Below, in pieces: positions 1,058 to 31,935 of a stretch of DNA of 38,103 bases. Source of the stretch: a virus. The stretch lies in UHGV virus genome UHGV-0235457. One strand, written 5' to 3'. The first letter of the stretch is position 1, and each line of letters opens with the position of its first letter. The notes under the pieces are model-generated. The model searched no databases. It was not told the origin of the DNA and saw nothing but the letters and a program-made list of their open reading frames with translations. Made by a program: the position numbers and the translations under genes.

Positions 1058-1198
1058 TTACTGCTTACACTGTAAGAACGCCGCAAACTCCGCTCCCCAG
1101 AAGCTCATCCGTATTTCACACAGCGAACCGTGCAGCATCCAGATGATGAGGATTACCGTCACGCAGAACGTGATGGCCGTAAGCGATTTTTGCGACAT
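1058..1198 (-). CDS. Hok/Gef-family type I toxin, 46 aa (below the ORF-track length cut-off)
   Basis: Hand translation MSQKSLTAITFCVTVILIIWMLHGSLCEIRMSFWGAEFAAFLQCKQ: N-terminal TM helix, conserved SLCE and AAFL-C motifs as I recall them from HokA; AAGGAG 7 nt upstream of ATG. Confidence 0.6.
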   Translation of the reverse strand: MSQKSLTAITFCVTVILIIWMLHGSLCEIRMSFWGAEFAAFLQCKQ

Positions 1199-1387
1199 AG
1201 CGCTTGCTCCTTTGTTGGAGAGGCGCTAACCTATCACTTGCTAGGTTGACGGGTTAGGGCCTCGGTTAAACAGAAATGTTTTCCGGGGCCTTTCCACATC
1301 CGGTCTTCGGGTATTCCCTCCGACCATCAGCCGAAAGGCACCCGCACGTAATCTATCGCTTTTTTGTTACTCCGGCAATTCTGCCTG

Positions 1388-1648
1388 TTAATTCTGAGGT
1401 AAAGGCAAACTCATCTGATTGTTTCCCCTGTGTGAAGCTGGCAGCTCATGCCACGGGATACCTTCTGATGAGTGAACGCCGGAGGCGTGTTTCGATGTGA
1501 ATTTATGGAAAGCTTCCAGTGTTGAGAAGCATACGCCGCATTCTAGGTTGTTACACTGGTAATACTTTTGCCGCACGGTGTTTGAATCATTTTCCGGACG
1601 ACTGGTGCGGATACGGGCAGATGCGCCACAAAGCGGACAACGGAACAT
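1388..1648 (-). CDS. ogr: Ogr/Delta-family zinc-finger late transcription activator
   Basis: MFRCPLCGASARIRTSR...YYQCNNLEC resembles P2 Ogr as recalled; AAAGGAGG RBS; sits next to gene D as in P2. Confidence 0.85.
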   Translation of the reverse strand: MFRCPLCGASARIRTSRPENDSNTVRQKYYQCNNLECGVCFSTLEAFHKFTSKHASGVHSSEGIPWHELPASHRGNNQMSLPLPQN

Positions 1649-1690
1649 AGCGACCTCCTTTAACGTGGTGCTGCCGCTATTCTAAGTTGC

Positions 1691-2800
1691 TCACTCTGTT
1701 TCCGCTATCCATTCCGGGATTTTTGCCTCAAGCTCAAGCTGCGTGGTAAAGCCGCTGTTATCAATGGTGTGCTCGGCTTTTGCAATAATCCAGTCCTGAT
1801 TATCAATCTCGCTTTTAAATCCTGTTACCGTGCCATGCATTTCGGGGTAGAGTTCTGCTCGTCCACGTGCCAGCGTGATGGAGAATGATGCGGCTCCGCG
1901 TTGTAGTTGTTGCCACTTTGCCGCCGCTGCGCGTCTTGCTGCCTGCTCGTTCTGATAAGTCTTGCGTAACACAAACACATTGCCTTCCGCGCCTTCCATA
2001 TAATCACCTTCACGGCTGCTGCTTTTCTCTTTTTTCGGTTTTGGCGGTTTGCGGCGTTTCACGCTGACTTTTTTCTTTTTCCCGTAATTAAGATCAAGCC
2101 AGTAAGCGCGTACCCCCGTATACGCCTCGCGGTCAGCAATGCGGAACTGATGGCGATCGCCGCTACTGCGTGTGATGGCGAACGATGGCAACGGCTGGCC
2201 CTGTGCGTTCACGCCACCGCCGGGCATGATGAATAACAGATTACCGCTTTTTACCGTGGTGATTGCGCCCAGCATTTCCGCCATGCGCGTAAGGAAGGAC
2301 ATGTCACTTTCTTCGGTCTGGTCGGCGTGGTCGATTTCGATATCCATCAGCATTTCGCTGATTTGCGGTTTCAGACCGTACCGATGAGCGATGGCGGATA
2401 CCACACGCTCAACGGTCACATCATGCCAGGACACCTCACGTTTAACGTTAAATTCATCCCGAAAATCTGCGCTTCTGGCTGAAACAGTCAGCCTGTCCGG
2501 CGGTCCTTCGTGAGCGATTTCATCAACAATGTAAGTGCCTTTTTCTGTCAGCGGTTCTCCTTTCCAGCCAATGAGAACCGTCAGGCGCGCGCCCCGTGGC
2601 GGTAGCTGCAACTGACCATCCGCATCATCCAGCGTGATGGTGAGCTGGTCCGCCTCAAATCCCCGGTTGTCGGTCAGCGACAGGCTCATCAGGCGCTCTG
2701 CCACGCCGGACAGCGTTTTACCCTCCGCGAGAATATCAAAATCCGGCATTTTCACGGGGTCTGTGCCCTGACTGAGCAATTGCATGGTGGTGTCGGTCAT
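1691..2800 (-). CDS. Phage late control gene D tail protein (P2 gpD-like)
   Basis: ORF 1691-2932; N-terminal 44 codons are low-complexity, so start set at ATG 2800 preceded by GGGAGGG; C-terminal region resembles gpD family as recalled. Confidence 0.8.
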   Translation of the reverse strand: MTDTTMQLLSQGTDPVKMPDFDILAEGKTLSGVAERLMSLSLTDNRGFEADQLTITLDDADGQLQLPPRGARLTVLIGWKGEPLTEKGTYIVDEIAHEGPPDRLTVSARSADFRDEFNVKREVSWHDVTVERVVSAIAHRYGLKPQISEMLMDIEIDHADQTEESDMSFLTRMAEMLGAITTVKSGNLLFIMPGGGVNAQGQPLPSFAITRSSGDRHQFRIADREAYTGVRAYWLDLNYGKKKKVSVKRRKPPKPKKEKSSSREGDYMEGAEGNVFVLRKTYQNEQAARRAAAAKWQQLQRGAASFSITLARGRAELYPEMHGTVTGFKSEIDNQDWIIAKAEHTIDNSGFTTQLELEAKIPEWIAETE

Positions 2801-2957
2801 CTGTTCCCTCCCTGTGCGGCATGGTCGCATGTGCGTGCGGAGTGGGTTACTGCTTTTTGTTGTCGCCGTGGCGGGAGAATAGCGCAGGGGTGAGATTACG
2901 CGCGTGGTGGGTGATGATTGTTGCTGAATCATTTAACGGATACAAGGGGCTGAAGCT
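2801..2957. promoter_or_regulatory. Divergent intergenic region between D and the sheath gene; presumed late promoters
   Basis: 157 bp non-coding between divergent starts; no promoter elements identified with confidence. Confidence 0.3.
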
Positions 2958-4142
2958 ATGAGTGAAACTCGTTTTCATGGTGCCCGTGTTACGGAAAGTA
3001 CCGACCTGGTAACAGCGATTAATGATGTTGATTCCAGTGTTATCGGTATCGTGGCAACGGCGGATGATGCGGATGCGGAGCTGTTCCCGCTGAACAAGCC
3101 CACACTGCTGACCCGCGTCAATGACGTGCTGGGAAAATGCGGAACAACGGGGACGCTTTATCGTGCGCTTAAGGCCATCGCAGACCAGGTGAGCACAAAG
3201 GTGATCGTCGTTCGCGTGGCTGAACACAAAGAAGAAGACGGAAAAACGCAGGATCAACTGGTTATCGGTGGTTCTGAATCTGACGGCAGCTATACGGGGA
3301 TGTATGCGCTGCTTGTTGCAGAGCAGGATGAAAGCATCGGATACCGTCCGCGTATTCTGGCCGCGCCGGAGCTGGACACGGAGGCGGTAACAAAATCCCT
3401 GTGCGTGATTGCGGGTAAACTGCGCGCGTTTGTGTATGCCTCATGTCACGGCTGTAACACGATGGCTGAGGCGATGACCTACCGCCAGAAATTCAACGAA
3501 CGTGAGGTGATGCTCTTATGGCCGGACTTCATCGCCTACAACCCGAAAAGTGGCAAAAACGAAACGTTCCCCGCGCCTGCTTATGCGTGCGGCCTTCGTG
3601 CGTACATTGACCATGAGCAGGGATGGCACAAATCACTGTCCAACGTTCCGGTTAAAAATGTGCTGGGGATGTCGAGGCATGTGTTCTGGTCGTTGCAGGC
3701 CGAAGACAGTGATGCCAACAGCCTCAACAACAAAGAAATCACGACCATTATTCGTCGCAACGGGTTCCGCTTCTGGGGCAACCGCACACCGGAAACGAAC
3801 GCCTACATCTTTGAGGTGTACACCCGAACCGCACAGGTGCTGGCTGATTCAATTGCGGAAGCGCAGTTTGAAACCATCGACAGTCCACTGACGCCTGCGA
3901 ACGTGAAGGATGTTATCAGTGCCATCAGGGCAAAACTGGATTCACTGGTTACTGCCGGGAAACTGATTGGTGCGGAGTGCTGGTATGACGTGGTGGATAA
4001 CGGCACCACGAATTTACGTCAGGGGCGTGTGCGTATTCGCTACAAATATACGCCTGTTCCCCCGCTGGAAGACATGGAGCTTTACCAGTCGTTTACTGAT
4101 GAATTCTTTGGTCCCGCATTTGCGGTGCTGGGAGGTGCCTGA
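2958..4142 (+). CDS. Contractile tail sheath protein (P2 gpFI-like)
   Basis: 394 aa; DADAELFPLNKP and AIADQ motifs as recalled for P2 FI; AAGGGG RBS. Confidence 0.9.
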   Translation: MSETRFHGARVTESTDLVTAINDVDSSVIGIVATADDADAELFPLNKPTLLTRVNDVLGKCGTTGTLYRALKAIADQVSTKVIVVRVAEHKEEDGKTQDQLVIGGSESDGSYTGMYALLVAEQDESIGYRPRILAAPELDTEAVTKSLCVIAGKLRAFVYASCHGCNTMAEAMTYRQKFNEREVMLLWPDFIAYNPKSGKNETFPAPAYACGLRAYIDHEQGWHKSLSNVPVKNVLGMSRHVFWSLQAEDSDANSLNNKEITTIIRRNGFRFWGNRTPETNAYIFEVYTRTAQVLADSIAEAQFETIDSPLTPANVKDVISAIRAKLDSLVTAGKLIGAECWYDVVDNGTTNLRQGRVRIRYKYTPVPPLEDMELYQSFTDEFFGPAFAVLGGA

Positions 4143-4654
4143 TGGCTGTACCAAAACATCTTCGCTTTTTTACGCTGTTTGTGGATGGTGAAAACGAAGT
4201 GGGTAAAGTGACATCCGTCACGCCGCCCAAACTGACGCGCAAAACCGACAGCTATCGTGGTGGTGGCATGATGGGGGCAGTAAGTATTGATCTCGGTCTG
4301 GACGACTCCGCACTTGATGCGAGTTTTGTCATGGGGGGAGCTGTTCGTGCGCTGTTCCTTAAATATGGCGGCACGATTGACGGCACGCTGCTGCGTTTTG
4401 CGGGTGAATACTACACCGATGCAGAAAGCGATCTGTATGAAATCGAGATGCGCGGGCGTGTGACGGAAATTGATATGGGGGAAGCCAAACAGGGCGAAGC
4501 CACATCACACACTTACGCTGTCAAAAACACCTACTACAAGCTGAGCGTTAACGATCGCCCGCTGTGGGAAATCGACCTGTTGAACCACATCTACCGGAAG
4601 GACGGCAAGGACATTGTGCCTGACCGCATCCGTTCCGCGCTTGGGCTTGGCTGA
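4142..4654 (+). CDS. Tail tube protein (P2 gpFII-like)
   Basis: 170 aa; start overlaps sheath stop (TGATG); position after sheath. Confidence 0.85.
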   Translation: MAVPKHLRFFTLFVDGENEVGKVTSVTPPKLTRKTDSYRGGGMMGAVSIDLGLDDSALDASFVMGGAVRALFLKYGGTIDGTLLRFAGEYYTDAESDLYEIEMRGRVTEIDMGEAKQGEATSHTYAVKNTYYKLSVNDRPLWEIDLLNHIYRKDGKDIVPDRIRSALGLG

Positions 4655-4708
4655 TAAGTAATATGCAGGCGGCGCAGTGCGTTGCCTCTGACTGAAAGGA
4701 GTTTCCTG

Positions 4709-5074
4709 ATGAAAGAGACGAAAAACATCGATACCGAAAACACGGTAGTTGCTGACACTGTGAAAGAAACCAGTGAGCGTGGCGTAAAACTTACCCAACC
4801 AATTGAGCGAGGCGGCGAAAAAATCACGTATGTGGAGATCACCGGGGCTATTGAGCAGGCTGGATCTCTGCGAGATTTGTCGCTGTCTGATGTGCTGAAT
4901 CTGAAAGCGGAATCCATGTTTACGCTGCTGTCACGCGTGACATCACCGCGACTGGATGAAGTGACGATCAAAAAAATGGCATCCCGTGACTTTATTCAGT
5001 TATGTGTGGTTGCCGTAAATTTTTTGAGCGGTGCGGACTCTGGCGGGAAGAACGAACAGGCGACGGAAGCCTGA
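4709..5074 (+). CDS. Tail assembly chaperone (P2 gpE-like), zero-frame product
   Basis: ATG 4709 with AAAGGAG 8 nt upstream; lies between tube and tape-measure genes. Confidence 0.75.
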   Translation: MKETKNIDTENTVVADTVKETSERGVKLTQPIERGGEKITYVEITGAIEQAGSLRDLSLSDVLNLKAESMFTLLSRVTSPRLDEVTIKKMASRDFIQLCVVAVNFLSGADSGGKNEQATEA

Positions 5075-5238
5075 TCACGGTTGTGTGCTTTGAGTACATA
5101 GAAGACTTTGTGGCGGATATTGCCGCCATTTTTAACTGGTCGCCCGCCGAAATCTTCATGATGACGCCCGGCGAAGTGGTTAGCTGGCGTGAGCGGGCGG
5201 CACTTCGCAGCGGGAATGCAGACAATGAAGACTCTTGA
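4709..5238 (+). CDS. Tail assembly chaperone frameshift fusion product (gpE+E'-like); -1 shift at T_TTT_TTG 5020-5026
   Basis: Slippery heptamer in correct phase in the E frame; -1 frame stays open to 5238. Confidence 0.65.
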
Positions 5239-8032
5239 TATCCGGGTCGCTTTCAGCGCCGTTGACAGGCTGACCCGGCCTGCCGAAAACGCCCGCCGCC
5301 TGATGGGGCAGTTTGGTGACTCCATCCAGCGAACGCAGGGGGCGATCAAAAATCTCGAGCGTCAGGCGCGTTCATTTGAGCGCGCCCGCGACGCTGTCAG
5401 TAAAGCGGATGCGGGTATCGTGAAAGCACGACGCCAGCTTAACGCCCTTAATCAGTTACAACGCACGGGTACAGTGCTCAGCGAAAAACAACAAAAGCTG
5501 ATGCAGCAGTTAAGCACCCGGCTTGAACGCCTGAATGAATCGCGCACACGGGAAATTCAGAAAATGCGGGAACTTGGCGGAGAGCTGAAACGCCACGGCA
5601 TTTCCCTGACAGGCAGCGATAACACCATCCAGCAGGCCATCAGACGCACCGAACAGTACAACAACCAGCTTGAACGCGAACGGCAGGCGCTTGCGCGTGT
5701 AACGCGGGCGCGTGAGCGGTATTCGCGCGTGCAGGAAACAGCGGGAAAACTGAAAACAGGTGGTGCGCTGGCAATTGGTGCGGCAGCGGCTGGCGGCTAT
5801 GCTGCCGGGCGTTTTTTGCAGCCTGCGATCGGGTTCGGGAAAGAGATGTCCCGCGTTCAGGCACTGACGCGAATCGACAAAAACAGCCCGCAGTTTAAGG
5901 CGCTGCGTGAGCAGGCGTTAAAACTTGGCTCTGAAACGCAGTTCACCGCAGGCGATGCCGCCAGTGGGCAGGCATTTCTTGCAATGGCTGGCTTCACTCC
6001 GCAGGCCATTCAGGCTGCGCTTCCGGGCGTGCTGAGCATGGCAACGGCTGGCGGCATGGATCTCGGCGAGACGGCGGATATTGGCTCAAATATCCTGACG
6101 CAGTTCGGCCTTTCTGCTGACCAGATGGACCGGGTTGGCGACACGCTCACCGCAGCATTTACCCGTACCAACACTGACCTTCGCGCACTGGGCGAAACCA
6201 TGAAATATGCAGGTCCGGTGGCGGGTAAGCTGGGAATATCGCTGGAGCAGGCCGCAGCGATGGCGGGCGTGCTGGCGAATATGGGTATCAGGGGGAGTGA
6301 TGCCGGGACGGCAATGCGTGCCAGCCTGGCTCGTCTGGCATCACCGCCAAAGGCAGCAGCAGAGGCGCTGAAAGAGCTTGGTGTGGCAGTCTCTGACGCG
6401 AACGGCAAAATGCGCCCGATGGAGGATGTGCTGGCCGACCTTTATAAAGCCACCCGCAAATACGGGGAAGTTGACCGGGTATCGTTCTTTAAGGACATTG
6501 CCGGAGAAGAGGCTTTCACATCGTTTATGGCGCTCGTTGATGCAGCGGGTGACGGTTCCTTACCTAAACTGAGAAAAGAACTTGAAGGTGCGCGCGGTGA
6601 GGCTGAACGCACAGCAAAGGTTATGGCCAACAACCTTGACGGCGATCTGAAATCACTCGGCAGTGCATGGGAAGGGTTGCGCATCCGCATTGCAGATCTG
6701 ATTGACGGTCCGCTGCGTTCTGTCACGCAGTGGCTCACGCGGGTGGTATCAAGGGTGACGGCGCTGGCGCAGGCCCATCCAACACTGACGCGCCAGCTAC
6801 TGATAGCAGGCGGTGCGTTGCTGGCAATGACTGCAACGGTTGGCTCGTTGTCGCTGGCTATTGGTGTGCTTGCTGGCCCGCTGGCAAAACTGCGTCTTGG
6901 TTTTTCTCTCCTGACCGGATCAATGAATGCTGTCAGGGTCCTGCCAGCACTATGGGGAATGGTGACGGGTTCCGTTTCTTTGCTGGGAGGTGCTATCGGG
7001 GCGCTGTTCAGTCCGGTTGGTCTTATCGTGGCTGCGCTTGCCGGAGCTGCCGTTCTTATCTGGAAATACTGGGATCCCATCAGGGCATTTTTTGCCGGGG
7101 TGTTCAGTGGGATTATGGAGCGGCTGGCCCCGTTGCGTGAAACCTTTGAACGGTTTGGCCCTGTTTTTGACGCAATCGGAAGCGGGATCAGCCAGGTGTT
7201 TAACTGGTTTAAATCGCTGCTGTCACCGATGGAGTCCAGCAAGGAAACGTTGGATAAATGTACCAGTGCTGGCGAGATATTCGGTAACGTTCTTGGTGGC
7301 GCGTTACAGCTTGTTCTGACGCCTGCAAAAATGTTGCTGGATACGCTGGCGTGGATACTTGAAAAACTCGGTGTTCTTCCGGATGAAGCGGAAAGGGCGA
7401 GAAAGAAAATCGAAGACGCACAGCGTGCGGCCATTCTTCAGGACAAGGTTGCCTTGCTTCAGGGGGACCTGGCGAAAATCAATCCGCCGAAGCCTGTAGA
7501 AAATGGCAATGGCACCGGAGGTGATAACCCCAAAGACAATAAACCGCTCACAGACAGCAATACCGGTACGCTGCGCAGACTCAGCAAAATTGCTGATAAC
7601 ACAGGTAAGCTGGTTGAGGAGACGAAAAAACGCATTGGCCCCGGCGATATTGTCTTTAAAAACCTGCCCCGAGCACTTGCTGTTCGTGGGGAGTGGCAGG
7701 AGCGGAAGATTGCGCAGGTCAGTAAGCCTGCCCCCGCAATTAATATCACACCCGTGGTCCCGGCTCCGCTGCCTCCGGCGCTGGTCCCTGTTGTTGCGGC
7801 CAGCTCCCGTCCGGTGGCGGAGGCCATACGATCTCCAGTGGCATCAGTTCCTGTAACTTCCCGTAACCGGGAGCCTGTTGCCTCCGGATTTGGTGGTGAA
7901 ATTCATGTTCATCTGCATAACGTTGTTACGCAGAATCCCCGCGAACTGGCGAAACTGGTCGGTGAAATGGTCAGGGCAGAAATGGAACGGCGCGCCCGTG
8001 CCGGGCGTGGCAGTTTTTACGATAAAGATTGA
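5216..8032 (+). CDS. Tail tape measure protein (P2 gpT-like); start ambiguous (GTG 5189, ATG 5216 or 5225)
   Basis: 947-codon ORF, coiled-coil N-terminus, hydrophobic glycine-rich central segment; follows chaperone genes. Confidence 0.85.
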   Translation: MQTMKTLDIRVAFSAVDRLTRPAENARRLMGQFGDSIQRTQGAIKNLERQARSFERARDAVSKADAGIVKARRQLNALNQLQRTGTVLSEKQQKLMQQLSTRLERLNESRTREIQKMRELGGELKRHGISLTGSDNTIQQAIRRTEQYNNQLERERQALARVTRARERYSRVQETAGKLKTGGALAIGAAAAGGYAAGRFLQPAIGFGKEMSRVQALTRIDKNSPQFKALREQALKLGSETQFTAGDAASGQAFLAMAGFTPQAIQAALPGVLSMATAGGMDLGETADIGSNILTQFGLSADQMDRVGDTLTAAFTRTNTDLRALGETMKYAGPVAGKLGISLEQAAAMAGVLANMGIRGSDAGTAMRASLARLASPPKAAAEALKELGVAVSDANGKMRPMEDVLADLYKATRKYGEVDRVSFFKDIAGEEAFTSFMALVDAAGDGSLPKLRKELEGARGEAERTAKVMANNLDGDLKSLGSAWEGLRIRIADLIDGPLRSVTQWLTRVVSRVTALAQAHPTLTRQLLIAGGALLAMTATVGSLSLAIGVLAGPLAKLRLGFSLLTGSMNAVRVLPALWGMVTGSVSLLGGAIGALFSPVGLIVAALAGAAVLIWKYWDPIRAFFAGVFSGIMERLAPLRETFERFGPVFDAIGSGISQVFNWFKSLLSPMESSKETLDKCTSAGEIFGNVLGGALQLVLTPAKMLLDTLAWILEKLGVLPDEAERARKKIEDAQRAAILQDKVALLQGDLAKINPPKPVENGNGTGGDNPKDNKPLTDSNTGTLRRLSKIADNTGKLVEETKKRIGPGDIVFKNLPRALAVRGEWQERKIAQVSKPAPAINITPVVPAPLPPALVPVVAASSRPVAEAIRSPVASVPVTSRNREPVASGFGGEIHVHLHNVVTQNPRELAKLVGEMVRAEMERRARAGRGSFYDKD

Positions 8033-8038
8033 GGAGTC

Positions 8039-8533
8039 ATGGCCATGATGATGATCTACGGCATGTTTGTTTTTGAGCTGCGCACGCTGCCGCATCAGCA
8101 GTTACAGCAAAACAAAAGCTGGCGGCATGTGAAAAATGAACGCGTTAACCGTTCAGCAAGCTGGCAGTATATCGGTGCAGGTGATGATCGCATCGTTCTT
8201 TCTGGTGTGCTTTATCCTGAAATTACAGGTGGCGAAGTGTCGCTGTCGCTGCTGACCACGCAGGCGTATACAGGACGACCCTGGCCTCTGATTGATGGCG
8301 TCGGGCAGATTTACGGCATGTATGTCCTGACCGGAACGAATACGACCCGTTCCGAGTTTGATCGCTACGGTAAGGCGAAAAAGATAGAATTTTCACTGAC
8401 CCTTGAACGCTGTGATGAGGATTTGCGGGAGCGCCTGCAATCCTCATCGTTCAGCGATATGCTGTCCGGCTTCAAAGATAAGGTGACATCATCTCTTAAC
8501 AGCGCGGCCAGTTCAGTTAAAGGGCTGTTCTGA
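8039..8533 (+). CDS. Tail protein gpU-like
   Basis: 164 aa; MMMIYGMFVFELRTLP start resembles P2 U as recalled; follows tape measure. Confidence 0.8.
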   Translation: MAMMMIYGMFVFELRTLPHQQLQQNKSWRHVKNERVNRSASWQYIGAGDDRIVLSGVLYPEITGGEVSLSLLTTQAYTGRPWPLIDGVGQIYGMYVLTGTNTTRSEFDRYGKAKKIEFSLTLERCDEDLRERLQSSSFSDMLSGFKDKVTSSLNSAASSVKGLF

Positions 8534-8544
8534 TTTAACACAAA

Positions 8545-8580
8545 AACCGCTAATGGTCAGATTAGCGGTTATTTTGTTTT
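8545..8580. terminator. Bidirectional rho-independent terminator between convergent U and invertase genes
   Basis: ACCGCTAAT-GGTCAG-ATTAGCGGT hairpin; T-rich run on both sides; the plus-strand T-tract overlaps the last invertase codons. Confidence 0.55.
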
Positions 8581-9156
8581 CTGACTCTTCTCTATTGTTC
8601 CGCTTGATTCTCCTGCGGGGTGGTAACGATAAATCGTCGATGTACCAATGCCGTAAATTATTGCCAGTTGTTTTCTGTCGTGACCGTTTTTAATCAGCCT
8701 TGCTATTTGCTCATGCTGTTCTTTTGTCAGCTTCGGTCGACGTCCGCCTGTGCGCCCCCGTGCGCGCGCTGCCGCCAGTCCGGCCAGTGTACGTTCAACA
8801 ATTAATTCACGTTCCATTTCAGCCAGGGCACCCATCACGTGGAAGAAGAAACGCCCCATTGGAGAAGATGTATCTATGCTGTCGGTCAGACTGCGAAAAT
8901 TAATCCCTCGTTCCCGTAGTTCCCCGACGAGAGAAATCAGATGTTTCATGCTTCGCCCGAGGCGATCCAGTTTCCAGACAACCAGCGTGTCACCTTTTTG
9001 AAGGCGCTTTAAAGCGCGTTTTAATCCCGGTCGGTCTGTCTTTGTCCCGCTTAATTTATCTTCAAATATTTGTTCACATCCTGCACAAACAAGAGCGTTT
9101 CGTTGCAGGTCTGTATTCTGGTCATTTGTTGATACCCTTACATAGCCAATCAGCAC
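8569..9156 (-). CDS. Serine-recombinase DNA invertase (Gin/Hin/Cin/Pin family)
   Basis: LIGYVRVSTNDQ N-terminus with catalytic Ser, C-terminal HTH; likely GTG start at 9156 with GGGAGA RBS (ORF track begins at 9174). Confidence 0.9.
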   Translation of the reverse strand: MLIGYVRVSTNDQNTDLQRNALVCAGCEQIFEDKLSGTKTDRPGLKRALKRLQKGDTLVVWKLDRLGRSMKHLISLVGELRERGINFRSLTDSIDTSSPMGRFFFHVMGALAEMERELIVERTLAGLAAARARGRTGGRRPKLTKEQHEQIARLIKNGHDRKQLAIIYGIGTSTIYRYHPAGESSGTIEKSQKTK

Positions 9157-9210
9157 GCTGAATCTCCCGTCCAAAAGCGTAAATCATGCCATGCAGGTCA
9201 GAAACGGCCA

Positions 9211-9236
9211 TTATCTAAAACCTCGGTTTACAGGAA
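9211..9236. other. Invertase crossover site (gix/hix-like), invertase-proximal
   Basis: TTATCTAAAACCTCGGTTTACAGGAA; inverted copy at 12275-12300; close to the Mu gix sequence as I recall it. Confidence 0.8.
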
Positions 9237-10172
9237 ACGGTAAATCAGGCTTCTGGCGCATTACAGAAAAACCAGAACGGCGCAGATATTCCAGGAAAAG
9301 ATACCTTCACAAAAAATATTGGTGCATGTCGCGCTTTTCACAGTGCTATTAGTACAGGGGCAGGGAACTGGACAACGGCACAATTGATTGAATGGCTGGA
9401 TTCTCAAGGGGCATTCAATCACCCATACTGGATGTGCAAATGTTCATGGTCATACGGCAATAATAAAATTATTACCGATACTGGCTGTGGAACTATTCAT
9501 CTTGCAGGTTGCGTTATTGAGGTTATGGGTAATAAAGGTGCCATGACCATCCGTGTAACCACCCCGAGCACTTCCAGCGGTGGCGGAACTACTAATGCAC
9601 AATTTACTTATATAAACCACGGTGGAGATTATGCGCCAGGCTGGCGGCGTGACTACAGTACCAAAAATCAGCAGCCTGCATTTGCTTTAGGGCAGACAGG
9701 AAGCACTGTTGGAAATGACAAAGCTGTTGGATGGAACTCAAATAGCGGCGTTTATAATGCGACTATTAGTGGAGCGTCAACATTGATTCTTCACTTTAAT
9801 ATGAATGCGGGGAGTTGCCCGGCGGTTCAGTTCCGTGTGAATTATAAGAACGGCGGTATTTATTATCGTTCAGCGCGAGATGGTTATGGATTTGAGGCTG
9901 ACTGGTCAGAGTTTTATACCACAACCCGCAAACCCTCTGCGGGAGATGTTGGTGCATATACCAAAGCTGAATCGGATTCTCGCTATGTACGAGATATTCG
10001 CCTGGGCACTCGTGTTGTTCAGACCATGCAAAAAGGCGTGATGTATGAGAAATCAGGTCATGTAATTACAGGGCTTGGCATTGTCGGCGAAGTTGATGGC
10101 GATGATCCGGCAGTATTCAGACCAATACAAAAATACATTAATGGCACATGGTATAACGTGGCGCAGGTGTAA
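9222..10172 (+). CDS. Alternative tail-fibre C-terminal domain cassette, silent in this orientation
   Basis: Frame open from the crossover site; ...LGLQETVNQ... continues in phase with the H constant region after inversion; C-terminus [14 protein letters not shown] parallels the current fibre end. Confidence 0.75.
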   Translation, partial: LGLQETVNQASGALQKNQNGADIPGKDTFTKNIGACRAFHSAISTGAGNWTTAQLIEWLDSQGAFNHPYWMCKCSWSYGNNKIITDTGCGTIHLAGCVIEVMGNKGAMTIRVTTPSTSSGGGTTNAQFTYINHGGDYAPGWRRDYSTKNQQPAFALGQTGSTVGNDKAVGWNSNSGVYNATISGASTLILHFNMNAGSCPAVQFRVNYKNGGIYYRSARDGYGFEADWSEFYTTTRKPSAGDVGAYTKAESDSRYVRDIRLGTRVVQTMQKGVMYEKSGHVITGLGIVGEVDGDDPAVFRPIQKYINGTWYNVAQV

Positions 10173-10175
10173 CTT

Positions 10176-10709
10176 ATGCAGCATTTAAAAAACATTAAGT
10201 CAGGTAATCCAAAAACAAAAGAGCAATATCAGCTAGCAAAGAATTTTGATGTTATCTGGTTATGGTCAGAAGATGGAAAAAATTGGTATGAGGAATTAAA
10301 AAACTTTCAGGAAGATACAATAAAACTGGCTTACACAGTTGAGGGAATAATTGTTGCTATGGACAAGGATGTATCGGCAATTAATCCAGAAGGTTTAAGT
10401 GTCGTTGAGTTGCCTGATATTACAGCAAATCGCCGGGCTGATATTTCGGGTAAATGGATGTTCAAAGATGGCGTAGTGATAAAGCGAACTTATACCGAGG
10501 AGGAACAGAGGCAGCAGGCAGAGAATGAAAAGCAAAGCCTGTTGCAACTTGTCAGGGATAAAACCCAGCTATGGGGCTCACAGCTACGGCTGGGCATCAT
10601 TTCCGACGAGAATAAACAAAAATTAACCGAGTGGATGCTCTATGCGCAGAAAGTCGAATCTACAGACACCTCCAGCCTGCCAGTAACATTTCCCGAACAA
10701 CCTGAATGA
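10176..10709 (+). CDS. Tail fibre assembly chaperone, partner of the alternative cassette
   Basis: 177 aa; N-terminus [11 protein letters not shown] and central DITANRRAD motif parallel the paralog at 10738-11265. Confidence 0.8.
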
Positions 10710-10712
10710 GAC

Positions 10713-10737
10713 AAGGCCCGATAGCGGGCCTTAATTT
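10713..10737. terminator. Bidirectional terminator between the two convergent assembly-chaperone genes
   Basis: AAGGCCCG-ATAG-CGGGCCTT hairpin flanked by A/T runs. Confidence 0.55.
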
Positions 10738-11265
10738 TTATTCAGGCTTTTGTGGCCATTCAGGATTTGCCGTATCCACACGGCTGACCAGAACACTGTA
10801 GCGTTCCCATGCTTCCAGTCGTGTGCGTTCCTCGTCTGTTGCCATATTCAGCCTGACAGCGCGTTCCAGCGGCTGGATGACTGATTCAGCTTCGGAAAGC
10901 AATGCGGCCTTTTGTGATTCGGCTTGTTGTTGCTGTTCGTCTGCCGTATAAATCCGTTTAACCACAGCTCCATCCTTAAACATCCACTTTCCTGAATCAT
11001 CAGCGCGGCGGTTGGCTGTAATATCTGGAACCTCAACGACGCTAAAACCTTCAGGGTTAAGCGTGGAGGCATCTTTAGTGATGGCGACAATAATATTATT
11101 TGCATCGTAAACAATCTTTATTGTGTCTGGCTGAAAGTTTTTCACTTCCTCATACCAGTTTTTTCCGTCCTCAGAGTAAAGCCAGATAACTCCGTGTTTC
11201 TTTGTTAACTCATACTGTTCCAGTGTTTTAGCGTTACCCGCTTTTATGTTCTTTAAGTGCATCAT
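10738..11265 (-). CDS. Tail fibre assembly chaperone (P2 gpG-like), expressed orientation
   Basis: 175 aa directly downstream of the fibre gene. Confidence 0.85.
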
Positions 11266-11266
11266 A

Positions 11267-13564
11267 TTAAACGCTCGCTACATTATACCAGGTGCCATTT
11301 ATATACTTTTGAACGGGTCTGTAATAAACGCCCGCTATATTATCGGCAGAGTTGGCCCCTGTATCCTGAACATTAATACCAGACAATACATGACCTGACG
11401 GGCACTGGAAATTCCATGTTTGCCAGTTGTTCACTCCATAATATTGCTGTGAACCAAGTCGAACATCTTTCACATATCTGGAATCAAAATTGCCATAGTT
11501 GCCGGGAATAACTTGCGAGCCGCAAAGCCAGTTCCCGTTATTATCCATGTACGCCTGACCATCGGTACCATTGGCTGTCCTTGAGTTATTAATCATGTAG
11601 ATGCCAAATTGCTTATTCCCCAGTCCACCAATCATAAATTTGCGATCAGCGTGGTCCTGACGAAGTAATGCCTGCGCACCATCGGTGGATACCGCATTGC
11701 GTCCCAAAATAACATTCTGGTCACGCATATGAATCCACATGCCGGTACTACTGTTAATTGCAAAACGGTTTGCAAATATATCCCCTGTAACATCAAGACC
11801 ATGCCCCATGCTTATCCGACCAGTTCTAAGGTTAATCGTAAAGGGGCGTAATGGCCCTATATCACCATTTTCTCCCTCATTCTCTCGTGTAGGGATGATA
11901 TGCAGGCATTCTTCAGAACGGCGAAAAATGGCACCAAAAGATGAATTAAATATCCTCAGTGCATTGACTGTCGATATTTTTACTTCACTGCTGAAAAGGG
12001 CTTTAACAAGAACAGACAAAGCATCCCATTTAAGATTCATCAGGTCTTTTGTTGTGGTGCTTTGTTTGCTTCTCCATTTGAAATATTCATTGCCGTTGTC
12101 GCCTGTTTCAAACCACATGTATGAATCAGTGTCACCATCGGCATCATTTTTAAATCCAATCTTCGCCCAGTCAGTATTTCGAATCCAGGCAAGGATTGAG
12201 TCATTTTCAAAAGTAAGCCCACCGGACAAGGTATCGCCATTTTTTTGCACGGCGTTACCAGCCCTGTTTACCGTTTCCTGTAAACCGAGGTATTCGATAA
12301 CGGCAGCAACGGTCGATTTCGCAAGAATATCCCGCCCGACTTTTGTCAGGGTTGCCAGGCTGGCGACATCATTCCCCGTAAAATACGGAAACTTGTCTGC
12401 AGCAGTAGCAAGCCCGGCCAGCGCCGTCAGGGTGGCATCTTTCGGTTGCTTACCCGCAAGCGCGTTAGTCATGGTGGTCGCAAAATTCGGGTCGTTTCCC
12501 AGCGCCGCCGCTAACTCGTTCAGCGTATTCAGTGCGTCAGGTGACGAATCTACAAGGGCGGCAATCGCAGCCATAACGAAAGCCGTGCTTGCGATTTGGG
12601 TATTATTCGTTCCCTGTCGCGCAGTTGGCGTTGTTGGCGTTCCGGTCAACGCAGGACTGTTTAAGGGCGCTTTCTTGTTCGTTTCATCCATTACCGCCTT
12701 GACCGCTTTCGATGTCGCGGCCAGTGTTTCAGACGTGCTGTTGGTGGCACTACTGAGCTGGACTATCCCTTTTTGTGCCGTCGTGGCGTCCTGAGCGGTA
12801 TATTTTGCGTTAGCAAGGTCATACGCGGCCTTTACTGCTTTCGGCGTTGCAGCCTGCGTTTCAGACGTGCTGTTGGTTGCACTGCTGAGCTGGACTATCC
12901 CTTTTCGTGCCGTCGTGGCGTCCTGAGCGGTATATTTTCCGTTAGCCAGGTCATACGCGGCCTTAACCGCTTTCGGCGTTGCAGCCTGCGTTTCAGACAC
13001 GCTGTTAGTGGCGCTACTGAGTTGAACAAAGCCTTTTGCGTTCAGCGAGGCGTCCGGGTGACGTCGTGACTGTTCATGCTCTTTCAGTTTGTCATCCACG
13101 TAATCCACTGTGGCCATCACCATGGTGTTATCCACGGTAAGTGCCACGGTGGCAGTGCTGGATACGGTCAGAATGGTGCGAAATGTTTGTGCACGACCGG
13201 ACCCTTCGGCAACGGCTGGCTTGTAACTTTCGGCAGTATTGCCCACCGCGATTAAATCGCCGTGCTCATCAAATACACCAATTTCCCGGATCCAGAATCC
13301 GCCCGTTTCTGGAGGAATAACCAGCTCTGCAATAATGCGGTTCTGATGTGTTGCGTCCAGGATGACGCGATTAACAGTATGTCGCCACACCTCATGCACC
13401 AGACGGGTCTGCTTACTGTCTGGCGTGGGCAATGTACCGCCACCGTCGCCCACGGCCATATGAGTCAGGCGGACAGGCTTACCATCTGGCGCGGCTGCCT
13501 GAGCTAATTTTTTGGCACCCGTATCGGTGATAACGGTTTTAAATTTACGTGTTGTGGTACTCAT
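11267..13564 (-). CDS. Tail fibre protein (P2 gpH-like); constant N-terminal ~426 codons, variable C-terminus inside the invertible segment
   Basis: 765 aa; internal fibre repeats; crossover site at codons encoding [10 protein letters not shown]. Confidence 0.9.
12275..12300. other. Invertase crossover site (gix/hix-like) inside the fibre gene
   Basis: TTCCTGTAAACCGAGGTATTCGATAA, inverted relative to 9211-9236. Confidence 0.8.
12680..13030. repeat. Three tandem ~129-bp coding repeats in the fibre shaft (phage tail fibre repeat)
   Basis: Units encode [41 protein letters not shown]; near-identical DNA copies visible. Confidence 0.8.
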
Positions 13565-17010: not shown

Positions 17011-17287
17011 GGTTGTTGTCCTCGTTGTTCAGTCGTTGCAGCCTGCGCTGTTCCAGTAATTCAATGGCCCGTTTATCTGCGTTACAGGTTTCCAGTGCAT
17101 CCAGAAGGCGGTCGCCCCATATACCGAGATTTCCCCATGTGGGAGTGTCAGGGAAGGGGGGAGGCGTTACCGGTATGGTCAGCGTCTGCGGTATAAGCCG
17201 GACTGACGGCGCTGGCCGTGGCGCGTTCTGCGTGCCTGCGCAACCTGTCAGTAAAACGAGCATCAGGCAAAGCGTGGGCGCATTCAT
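16997..17287 (-). CDS. Outer-membrane spanin lipoprotein (Rz1/LysC-like)
   Basis: Internal ATG gives MNAPTLCLMLVLLTGC with lipobox LLTGC, Pro-rich body; overlaps the 3' end of the i-spanin gene in another frame. Confidence 0.7.
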   Translation of the reverse strand: MNAPTLCLMLVLLTGCAGTQNAPRPAPSVRLIPQTLTIPVTPPPFPDTPTWGNLGIWGDRLLDALETCNADKRAIELLEQRRLQRLNNEDNNHAEN

Positions 17288-22033: not shown

Positions 22034-22187
22034 AGTTTTTGCCCCTCTGACTGGTTCTTCAGTCATGATGGCAAAGCGTAACAGGCTGATACAAAGGGCT
22101 TTTGTTGTAAGAAAACGGCCAGAACAGGGGGTTAAGGAGAACGGTTTCGCGCGCGGGTAATCTTCCTGTAATTACTCAGGGGGAGCA
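22034..22187. promoter_or_regulatory. Divergent late promoter region between scaffold and terminase operons
   Basis: 154 bp non-coding between divergent starts; by synteny with P2 PP/PO; no motif asserted. Confidence 0.35.
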
Positions 22188-31613: not shown

Positions 31614-31790
31614 GGTGTGGCCTCTTTGCTCGGTGATAGAAATAACTCACCATCCAGAGTTGAGAATCTCGGGGTGGCGAGACGTACAGGGTTCTCAACA
31701 CCGGAGAGCAAAGAATCCGGCCCGACCGAAGTCGGCCCCGTACGCCCCGCCATAATTCTGACGCGAAAAAGACGTGGCAATACAGTACGC

Positions 31791-31816
31791 ACAAAAAAAC
31801 CGCTTGCGCGGTTATG
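31791..31816 (-). terminator. Rho-independent terminator-like hairpin within the early-region non-coding stretch
   Basis: AACCGCGCAAGCGGTT stem followed by T7 on the minus strand. Confidence 0.5.
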
Positions 31817-31935
31817 CGCTTTGCTCTGTATCGGGTTGAGAATCCCGGCACCCGTTTTATGAGGTGCAGCGGAAATGTAACCTGACCGATTGAGGCATGG
31901 CAAGCGGTTTTTTTGTGTGTGCATGTTCTGGTTTC

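Follow-up and report, generated by a model that had tools for sequence, protein, structure and literature searches.

An inverted sheath-to-U tail block beside a divergent D-ogr unit in a P88-like prophage: an old, clade-wide gene order with a predicted two-way late promoter

Gene organisation of the tail region

The window considered here, meaning the whole stretch of 38,103 nucleotides of UHGV virus genome UHGV-0235457, is, judging from its similarity to known phages, a P88-like (Xuanwuvirus) prophage of the P2 family, Peduoviridae. It aligns colinearly with phage P88 over 30.8 kb at 95% mean identity, with approximately 7 kb of the window left unaligned, and the tail region in particular (positions 1200-9400) matches P88 at 97% identity over 99% of its length. 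Phage genera are delimited at about 70% or more genome-wide nucleotide similarity (identity x coverage), and the extent of the P88 match (30.8 kb at 95%) places the window at that level within Xuanwuvirus. The P2-type late gene set is present, including the head genes Q, P, O, N, M and L, the baseplate genes V, W, J and I, the fibre genes H and G, and the tail genes FI, FII, E, T, U and D together with ogr, and tblastn comparison returns 25-89% identity for each of the P2 genes in this list.

The features of the tail region are collected in Table 1. D and ogr lie on the minus strand, as do the other late genes, with ogr downstream of D across a gap of 42 bp, while FI to U (2958-8533) occupy the plus strand. 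The start of D is preceded by a Shine-Dalgarno sequence, GGAGGG, and is identical in the P88 record; its product is 48% identical to P2 gpD, and the translation of ogr displays a four-cysteine CX2C...CX4C pattern. The tape measure gene T probably starts at 5225, following the P88 annotation, and U is the final gene of what is here a shortened F operon. The invertase gene adjoining the block shares 92-96% DNA identity with gin of phages Mu and D108.

Table 1. Genes and sequence features of the tail region (positions in the window; a point marks features assigned to neither strand).
Feature	Position	Strand	Description
ogr	1388-1648	-	late-gene activator, Ogr/Delta zinc-finger family; Pfam Ogr_Delta, E = 5e-14
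D (gpD)	1691-2800	-	tail/baseplate hub protein; Pfam Phage_GPD, PHROG 52
D/FI divergent control region	2801-2957	.	157 bp; one junction of the ancient inversion
P_D -10 hexamer (predicted)	2821-2826	-	GACCAT (nAnnAT), mirror image of the P_F hexamer; start ~2814
Ogr-type activator site (predicted)	2861-2878	.	TGTCGCCGTGGCGGGAGA, TGT-N12-AGA; sole such site in the spacer
P_F -10 hexamer (predicted)	2913-2918	+	GATGAT (nAnnAT), 35-40 nt from the dyad edge; start ~2925
FI	2958-4142	+	tail sheath; Pfam sheath domains, 46% identical to P2 FI
FII	4142-4654	+	tail tube; Pfam Phage_tube, E = 2e-45
E + E'	4709-5238	+	tail assembly chaperone pair; PHROG 103, PHROG 1756
E	4709-5074	+	member of the chaperone pair
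E' part (GpE)	within ORF 5002-5238	+	second frame; Pfam Phage_P2_GpE
T	5189/5225-8032	+	tape measure protein; Pfam PhageMin_Tail, E = 2e-58
U (gpU)	8039-8533	+	tail protein; Pfam Phage_P2_GpU, E = 1.5e-38
Two-way intrinsic terminator	8545-8570	.	hairpin, 10-bp stem, A-tract before and T-tract after
Invertase	8569-9174	-	Gin/Hin-family serine invertase; Pfam Resolvase + HTH_7

The P2 F operon contains the same genes at 33-48% protein identity, but in the P2 reference record H, G, FI, FII, E, T, U, D and ogr all point the same way, and the transcript that starts at pF has D as its final gene. The window does not have this canonical organisation: its F operon ends with U, and D and ogr make up a divergent unit of their own. 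In both phages ogr is located downstream of D, and a late promoter of the same type, in the window a predicted one, lies upstream of FI, with the centre of its activator site about 80 nt before the FI start. At the other end of the block, the gap between the U and invertase stop codons (8534-8568) holds a hairpin that a terminator scan scored on both strands and whose T-tract (8572-8580) overlaps the last invertase codons. This terminator is common to the converging F operon and fibre/invertase operon and constitutes the other junction of the ancient inversion. Read-through to D from the invertase side would need the terminator to leak across a 5.6-kb antisense block, which is unlikely.

This layout had been described in the original prediction, made from the DNA alone, as an FI-to-U block on the plus strand with D and ogr on the minus strand, diverging from D across a 157-bp spacer, converging with the invertase gene on a bidirectional terminator that runs into its last codons, and departing from a co-directional FI-to-D order in P2. 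Open reading frames, Pfam and PHROG matches, spacer coordinates, the hairpin on both strands and the P2 record agree with each of these statements.

Distribution and origin of the inverted order

Phages P88, phiSM and P884B11 share the gene order of the window at 95-97% nucleotide identity. For example, P88 runs from H-G through an invertible fibre segment and gin to a reversed U-T-E-FII-FI block and D-ogr, with the same 157-bp spacer, and the P88 group differs from the window at strain level only, with some early-region and fibre sequence being different. Annotated phage genomes with this arrangement have already been deposited, and no paper was found that discusses this gene order, the P88, phiSM and SEN4/5 papers being silent on the inversion. 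When coverage of at least 80% of positions 1200-9400 in one colinear place is required, 13 phage records and 1109 E. coli records (1107 genomes) qualify, and the D/FI junction itself is colinear in 1357 of 5426 complete E. coli genomes (approximately 25%), or 98% of the 1380 genomes that have any match. Beyond E. coli, the inverted order was found in 31/31 surveyed loci whose D is 61-99% identical to that of the window, always with ogr after D on the same strand. These loci span about 14 enterobacterial genera and include SEN5 and Kp4871-3 as well as prophages of Salmonella, Kosakonia, Klebsiella, Enterobacter, Xenorhabdus, Photorhabdus, Providencia, Morganella, Hafnia, Rouxiella, Dryocola, Citrobacter, Yersinia and Pectobacterium.

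The departure from the textbook P2 order might suggest an assembly error or a recent inversion confined to this genome. Such a reading deserves virtually no credence in view of identical junctions in P88, phiSM and P884B11, viable phages that have been sequenced (PMC5285337, PMC6456863), the same order in about 14 other genera at D identities of just 61-76%, and the colinear E. coli junctions, the identical junction in more than 1300 independent complete genomes excluding misassembly. The interpretation given in the original prediction thus stands in part. A 5.6-kb inversion as an event of this particular genome does not hold, because related prophages routinely show the same arrangement (31/31 loci, 1357/1380 genomes), an observation named beforehand as speaking against it; on the other hand, its second option, a lineage whose late transcription has been rewired and whose D gene is no longer coupled to the F operon, is supported by an old, single, clade-defining event and by conserved mirror-symmetric elements of predicted late promoters in the spacer. 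The breakpoint intervals that it proposed, 2801-2957 and 8534-8568, are right in an evolutionary sense, and so is its report that the junctions lack inverted repeats: no repeats flanking the block exceed chance expectation (the best pair, 26 nt at 77% identity, lies inside coding sequence), and gix-like sites are absent from both junctions.

It could also be supposed that the Gin-family invertase or another recombinase flips the FI-U block as a programmed switch, so that both orientations coexist. The invertase gene abuts the block, and the phage does possess an invertible fibre segment of the Gin type, bounded by gix sites at 9211-9238 and 12273-12300. However, flanking sites of the Gin/Hin type bound the fibre segment (9211-12300) and not the FI-U block, which is without flanking inverted repeats, and the window contains no other gix-like site with up to 3 mismatches allowed. 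The populations sampled also speak against coexisting orientations, as 98% of the matching E. coli genomes share the D/FI junction, no flipped junction occurs among the E. coli matches listed, and the orientation is uniform across the 31 clade loci. Furthermore, SEN5 and many other clade members carry the inverted block without an adjoining invertase, and flipping back would part D from its conserved predicted promoter. Such a programmed switch is therefore very improbable, and the invertase is, on the evidence of site content and distribution, a neighbour of the block rather than a part of the inversion mechanism.

More distant relatives display the canonical order. It was found in 139/139 loci, 26 of which are partial and were scored from the U/D junction only, and every locus with a D at most 53% identical to that of the window is canonical, including relatives in Pseudomonas, Mannheimia and Burkholderia. 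The inverted order was seen in 0 of 80 more distant IMG/VR loci, and no independent inversion in another lineage was detected among the approximately 139 canonical loci drawn from GTDB genomes, GenBank phages and IMG/VR. Cartapus (Elveevirus) and similar canonical phages are instructive in this regard, as their G gene and sheath region are separated, just as in the window, by a fibre-inversion cassette and gin, and the D of Cartapus is 53% identical to that of the window, yet gin is followed by FI-FII-E-T-U-D-ogr, all co-directional; this arrangement seems to represent the pre-inversion state. SEN5 (species Senquatrovirus SEN4) and Kp4871-3 (Reginaelenavirus), with D proteins 63-70% identical to that of the window, have the reversed U-T-E-FII-FI block diverging from D-ogr just as the window does, and a single TGT-N12-ACA in spacers of 136-171 bp; SEN5 has no invertase beside U. 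The xenorhabdicin tailocin locus was considered as a possible member and set aside, since its sheath gene apparently stays next to the fibre region and it does not belong to the inverted clade.

In neighbour-joining trees of D and of FI, both simple and without bootstrap support, the inverted loci form one exclusive clade, which points to a single old event. These comparisons support an inversion that is old, single, fixed and clade-defining, with the canonical order being ancestral, and the clade includes at least Xuanwuvirus, Reginaelenavirus and Senquatrovirus.

P2-like genomes are mosaic, and a sheath-to-U cassette might instead have been acquired from another contractile-tail phage and inserted in reverse by illegitimate or homologous recombination. 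In line with this, the region directly downstream of U is a clear exchange boundary at which other strains carry different cargo, and, among the matches listed, those E. coli alignments that fail to span the junction stop at about 8538-8539. Nevertheless, the module replacement is quite unlikely, and the foreign-module reading is rejected on two grounds: all modules have diverged evenly from P2, and D and FI give the same clade. Identities to P2 amount to 46% for FI, 43% for FII and 46% for U as compared to 48% for D, 42% for N, 44% for P and 47% for Q, i.e. 33-46% for FI, FII, T and U versus 42-48% for D and the head genes, and FI identity rises and falls with D identity across loci. Moreover, canonical relatives have the same predicted FI-side promoter (site and -10), equally far from the FI start.

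Under the preferred reading of an old inversion, the segment comprising the pF promoter, FI, FII, E/E', T and U would have flipped once in the ancestor of a large enterobacterial branch of the P2 family, with one breakpoint between U and D and the other just upstream of the pF activator site, and vertical inheritance would then have led to its fixation. In canonical phages U and D abut or overlap, whereas approximately 60 bp separate the activator site from the D start in the window, a distance that was counted against the inversion model.

The D/FI spacer and its predicted divergent promoters

Late promoters of the P2 type, which depend on Ogr/delta, carry a TGT-N12-ACA dyad centred about 55 nt upstream of the transcription start, and their transcription needs Ogr and the alpha subunit of RNA polymerase. 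A search of the D/FI junction for such elements yielded a single predicted site of the form TGT-N12-AGA, and its position agrees with the spacing of about 55 nt if transcription starts at the predicted positions ~2925 and ~2814. The window has AGA in one half where its relatives have TGT-N12-ACA, the published P2 late-promoter consensus (PMC3931495); the substitution was counted against the promoter model. An extended form, TTTTGTTGT...AGAA, is common to this site and to the site in the divergent O/P spacer at 22106-22123, and start-codon spacing in the window is also similar, at about 154 bp for O/P versus 157 bp for D/FI. Upstream of the R-S-V operon (17011-17147) nothing convincing was found as a further late-promoter site, and the other TGT-N12-ACA matches in the window lie inside genes at chance rate (6 observed, approximately 9 expected).

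Exactly one TGT-N12-A[CG]A is present in 29/31 related spacers (ACA in 26 loci, AGA in 3), with a variable and divergent N12 between the half-sites, and TGT-N12-ACA reaches a density of 5.43 per kb in the spacers versus 0.185 per kb in the background, a 29-fold enrichment. The distance from site to FI start is 74.5-88.5 nt in inverted loci and, with a single exception, 76.5-86.5 nt in canonical loci. Two Providencia loci (L016 and L024) are devoid of TGT/ACA triplets and contain a different dyad, GGTTCTC...GAGAACC; these exceptions were counted against the promoter model.

The spacer also contains a weak -10-like hexamer, nAnnAT, on each side of the site. The A, A and T positions of the FI-side hexamer are approximately 90% conserved both in 18 non-redundant inverted and in 31 non-redundant canonical loci. 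At the mirrored position, the D-side nAnnAT is 80-90% conserved in the 18 inverted loci, whereas the corresponding columns of the 31 canonical loci are unconserved (20-30%); P_D is thus predicted to be specific to the clade, with a hexamer conserved in inverted members only. The geometry of P_F equals that of pF, pO and pP in the P2 record. Together with the nAnnAT elements on both sides, the window has the other attributes of such promoters, namely no consensus -35 and a phage-encoded activator of the Ogr family. The predicted D leader is short, at about 14 nt, which was counted against the promoter model.

The strongest competing explanation accepts an old and real inversion and places D under a separate constitutive or early promoter, or under a second, so far overlooked activator site, with the mirrored -10 being coincidental. 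The D-side hexamer GACCAT is indeed weak, one sub-clade shows a further conserved element, GACAAC, left of the site, and the Providencia loci use their different dyad. However, the D-side nAnnAT stands at the exact mirrored distance, 35-40 nt from the dyad edge, and has been kept in the 18 non-redundant sequences despite diverged flanks while being absent from canonical loci; a promoter scan of 2801-2957 gave no match to a sigma-70 consensus promoter; D encodes a structural tail protein that is needed late; and P2 itself offers, at pP/pO, a precedent of identical geometry. For these reasons a separate D promoter is considered unlikely, though more seriously to be reckoned with than the explanations above.

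In the P2 record, pP and pO have one activator site in common, and, as predicted for the D/FI spacer, a single dyad lies between divergent late operons with starts about 55 nt on each side, or 55.5 nt either side of the centre of a TGT-N12-CCA match. In phage Smp131, PP' and PO' have similarly been described on one site (PMC3931495). P2 pP/pO serve packaging and head genes, whereas the predicted D/FI site would serve the tail genes from FI onwards and D-ogr, and would do so in the inverted clade only.

From this conservation and geometry we infer that a single site drives a divergent pair, P_F and a new P_D, built like P2 pP/pO, with Ogr presumably binding at 2861-2878 and both promoters firing from there. 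The inverted order would be workable through the dyad symmetry of P2-type late activator sites, which can act in both directions, as at P2 pP/pO. The inversion would have placed the pF site beside D, leaving one TGT-N12-AGA/ACA site midway between two mirror-image weak -10 hexamers, with predicted starts about 55 nt either side of its centre, at ~2925 for FI-FII-E/E'-T-U and ~2814 for D-ogr. D would then head a new, short D-ogr late transcription unit, and the shortened F operon, like the converging fibre/invertase transcript, would end at 8545-8570. For the model as a whole, combining an old single inversion with divergent late promoters on a shared site, we estimate a probability of about 0.75.

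Significance for the P2 family

For annotation, the distribution of this order means that an opposed orientation of D and the sheath-to-U block is no reason to mark prophages of the P88, SEN4 and 3LV2017 types, present in about 25% of complete E. coli genomes, as rearranged or misassembled. The divergent D/FI junction can moreover serve as an easily scored synteny marker of this P2-family branch. With regard to regulation, it may tentatively be proposed that a second two-way promoter on a shared site, together with a short D-ogr unit, leads to tighter and faster positive feedback on late expression; if this is true, ogr would lie about 1.2 kb from an Ogr-dependent start, as compared to the end of a transcript of approximately 6.4 kb in P2. 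If the promoter model is true, the locus would also represent a natural case in which a palindromic activator site was recruited to rescue a gene that a rearrangement had severed from its operon. It is a tidy case of a tolerated operon-breaking inversion, in which a dyad site that works both ways elsewhere in the same phage has apparently been reused for the orphaned gene.

Late gene layout and identity of the element

Genes were called from an ORF listing together with Pfam and PHROG searches of the window, and every gene call of the original prediction was borne out. In the P2 reference record H, G, FI, FII, E, T, U, D and ogr are all co-directional, whereas in the window the block from FI to U is reversed, in every detail as had been predicted. 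Sequence and terminator scan also agreed with the predicted 157-bp divergent D/FI spacer and two-way terminator at the invertase 3' end. The longest D reading frame reaches 2932; GGAGGG stands before the ATG at 2800, which the phage P88 annotation also uses as the start, and the spacer therefore measures 157 bp (2801-2957). In the gap separating U from the invertase gene, a hairpin with a 10-bp stem, flanked by an A-tract and a T-tract, scored as an intrinsic terminator on both strands, its T-tract overlapping the invertase 3' end; further on come the fibre-inversion segment and, on the minus strand, G and H.

Coordinates of genes, sites and predicted elements in the window
Feature	Position	Strand	Description
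46-aa ORF	1058-1198	-	Looks like Hok/Gef-type toxin
ogr	1388-1648	-	Ogr/Delta zinc finger
D	1691-2800	-	gpD hub protein
Sigma-70 consensus match	1828-1799	-	GTAACA-18-GATAAT
D-side hexamer	2826-2821	-	GACCAT (nAnnAT)
Spacer CDS	2847-2978	-	Probably spurious
Predicted activator site	2861-2878		TGT-N12-AGA
FI-side hexamer	2913-2918	+	GATGAT (nAnnAT)
FI	2958-4142	+	Tail sheath
FII	4142-4654	+	Tail tube
E / E'	4709-5074 / within 5002-5238	+	Chaperone pair
T	to 8032	+	Tape measure
U	8039-8533	+	gpU
Hairpin	8545-8570	both	Scored intrinsic terminator
Invertase	8569-9174	-	Gin-family
gix sites	9211-9238; 12273-12300		Inverted copies
Alternative fibre tip	9384-10172	opposite to H/G	
Fibre-tip chaperone	10176-10709	opposite to H/G	
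O/P spacer site	22106-22123		Same extended form
C4 antisense RNA match	31670-31757	-	78.5 bits
isrK match	31793-31867	-	63.1 bits

Over 30.8 kb and at 95% identity, the window is colinear with Escherichia phage P88, a Xuanwuvirus of the family Peduoviridae, and positions 1200-9400 match it in a single piece at 97%. The P88 record has the same map, with fibre genes, invertible segment, invertase, opposite-strand U-T-E'-E-FII-FI and then D. The element belongs to a known phage genus and its arrangement is already visible in deposited annotations; the block inversion is not discussed in the P88, phiSM or SEN4/5 papers. P88 and Citrobacter phage phiSM are inducible and plaque-forming (PMC5285337, PMC6456863), and the arrangement is therefore functional. 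Rearranged late operons have also been noted in Smp131, another P2-like phage.

At the prophage end, beyond ogr, a 46-aa ORF (MSQKSLTAITFCVTVILIIWMLHGSLCEIRMSFWGAEFAAFLQCKQ) looks from its sequence like a Hok/Gef-type membrane toxin; P88 carries an annotated MokW-like hok/gef gene at the matching place, and the Rfam search of the window returned no Sok-type RNA. Matches to C4 antisense RNA and to the Hfq-binding sRNA isrK, both above the Rfam gathering score, lie side by side in the early/immunity region.

Invertase and the junction downstream of U

Two inverted 28-bp gix copies (TTATCNAANACCTCGGTTTACAGGAAAC) stand either side of a 3-kb fibre segment of the Mu G-segment type (about 9223-12285), which contains the H 3' part, the G gene and, on the opposite strand, an alternative fibre tip and its chaperone; the invertase DNA is 92-96% identical to gin of phages Mu and D108. 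That FI-U itself is a switch was rejected: the gix sites flank the fibre segment only, the window holds no further gix-like sequence with up to 3 mismatches allowed, the repeat search found no inverted repeats flanking the block, as originally reported, and the reversed block of phage SEN5, like that of many other clade members, has no adjoining invertase.

U runs continuously into this invertase in 621 of 1592 matching E. coli genomes, and among the matches listed the partial ones stop at about 8538-8539. The junction downstream of U (about 8534-8545) is an exchange or mosaic boundary, and a decayed O157:H7 copy has a serine O-acetyltransferase at this position. In P2 the cargo site, holding Z/fun, lies between G and FI, and its counterpart in the window is the junction downstream of U.

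Distribution and origin of the inverted order

At least 80% of 1200-9400 was found in one colinear place in 1107 of 5426 complete E. coli genomes, and a 901-bp probe showed the D/FI junction to be colinear in 1357 of the 1380 with any match. The survey was extended by D-protein alignment to phages in GenBank and to GTDB with a single genome for each species, loci being classed by tblastn with the window's proteins. Where D was 61-99% identical to that of the window, the block was reversed in all loci (31/31), including phages P88, SEN5 and Kp4871-3 and prophages of Salmonella, Kosakonia, Klebsiella, Enterobacter, Xenorhabdus, Photorhabdus, Providencia, Morganella, Hafnia, Rouxiella, Dryocola, Citrobacter, Yersinia and Pectobacterium. 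The split was clean, since all loci with D at or below 53% identity were canonical (46 complete and 10 partial), as were the more distant Pseudomonas phage Dobby, Mannheimia phiMhaA1 and Burkholderia KS14; among 80 IMG/VR loci, 64 were fully canonical, 16 were partial with a canonical U/D junction and none was inverted. Enterobacterial P2-like prophages also occur in a contig labelled Vagococcus sp. WN89Y (L008; D 98% identical to the window's) and an assembly labelled Chryseobacterium sp. (L082), and in these assemblies, whose labels are those of a Firmicute and a Bacteroidete, they are probably contamination.

The original prediction had offered either a recent inversion or a lineage with rewired late transcription. 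The former is refuted by the relatives sharing the order, which was the refuting condition set with the prediction; the latter is supported by the inverted loci forming one exclusive clade in neighbour-joining trees, rooted on KS14, for both D and FI, and by a predicted D-side promoter element specific to them. Import of the block from elsewhere is ruled out by an identity to P2 that is even between the block (FI 46%, FII 43%, T 33%, U 46%) and the other late genes (D 48%, N 42%, P 44%, Q 47%). The simplest history is that the segment comprising the FI-side promoter (pF) and FI through U would have inverted once in the clade ancestor, the new order then being inherited vertically.

A predicted shared late promoter site

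P2 late promoters are described as Ogr-dependent and bearing a TGT-N12-ACA dyad (PMC3931495, citing Christie and Calendar 1985, Julien and Calendar 1995). In the P2 record one activator site is annotated for the divergent pP and pO; the mapped starts of the two promoters (3016 and 3127) flank the centre of this site's TGT-N12-CCA match at 55.5 nt on each side. A search for such elements at the D/FI junction, proposed with the original prediction, yielded exactly one predicted site, TTTTTGTTGTCGCCGTGGCGGGAGAA, and the divergent O/P spacer has the same extended form, TTTTGTTGTAAGAAAACGGCCAGAA. A single TGT-N12-A[CG]A site is conserved in 29 of 31 related spacers (ACA in 26, AGA in 3), its triplets nearly invariant and its N12 freely divergent, and ACA sites occur at 5.43 per kb in spacers versus 0.185 per kb across these loci as a whole. 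Two Providencia loci of the inverted clade (L016, L024) lack TGT-N12-ACA in this spacer and have at the equivalent position a different dyad, GGTTCTC-N9-GAGAACC (TCT-N12-AGA), which suggests drifted activator specificity.

With 18 non-redundant inverted sequences anchored on the dyad, 80-90% conservation of an nAnnAT hexamer was seen both on the FI side, at +35 to +40, and on the D side, where its position is the exact mirror image. The FI-side hexamer was equally well conserved among 31 non-redundant canonical relatives, but their mirrored columns were not (20-30%); only the inverted clade thus has the predicted D-side element. Transcription would then start near 2925 and 2814, each about 55 nt off the dyad centre, as in P2. 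Conservation and geometry thus point to a predicted shared-site pair of divergent late promoters, in which pF would drive FI-U and a new D-side promoter, pD, would drive D-ogr. The scan found no sigma-70 consensus promoter in this spacer. Ahead of R-S-V, no third late promoter could be identified with conviction. Canonical phages have U and D abutting or overlapping, so that the 60 bp or so separating the activator site from the D start are without an obvious origin.

A hypothetical protein of about 43 aa is annotated through the spacer in P88 and in many RefSeq E. coli records. Conservation there resembles a promoter motif, not codons, spacer length is 122-194 bp among relatives, and the CDS is likely to be spurious. 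The scan gave just two sigma-70 consensus matches in 1200-9400, one of which sits inside the D 3' end, roughly 150 nt upstream of the ogr gene; it may correspond to the ogr-specific promoter of P2 between D and ogr.

In conclusion, the arrangement is most aptly regarded as a variant of P2's late gene layout that is typical of its lineage, in which a two-way activator site is predicted to have been reused.
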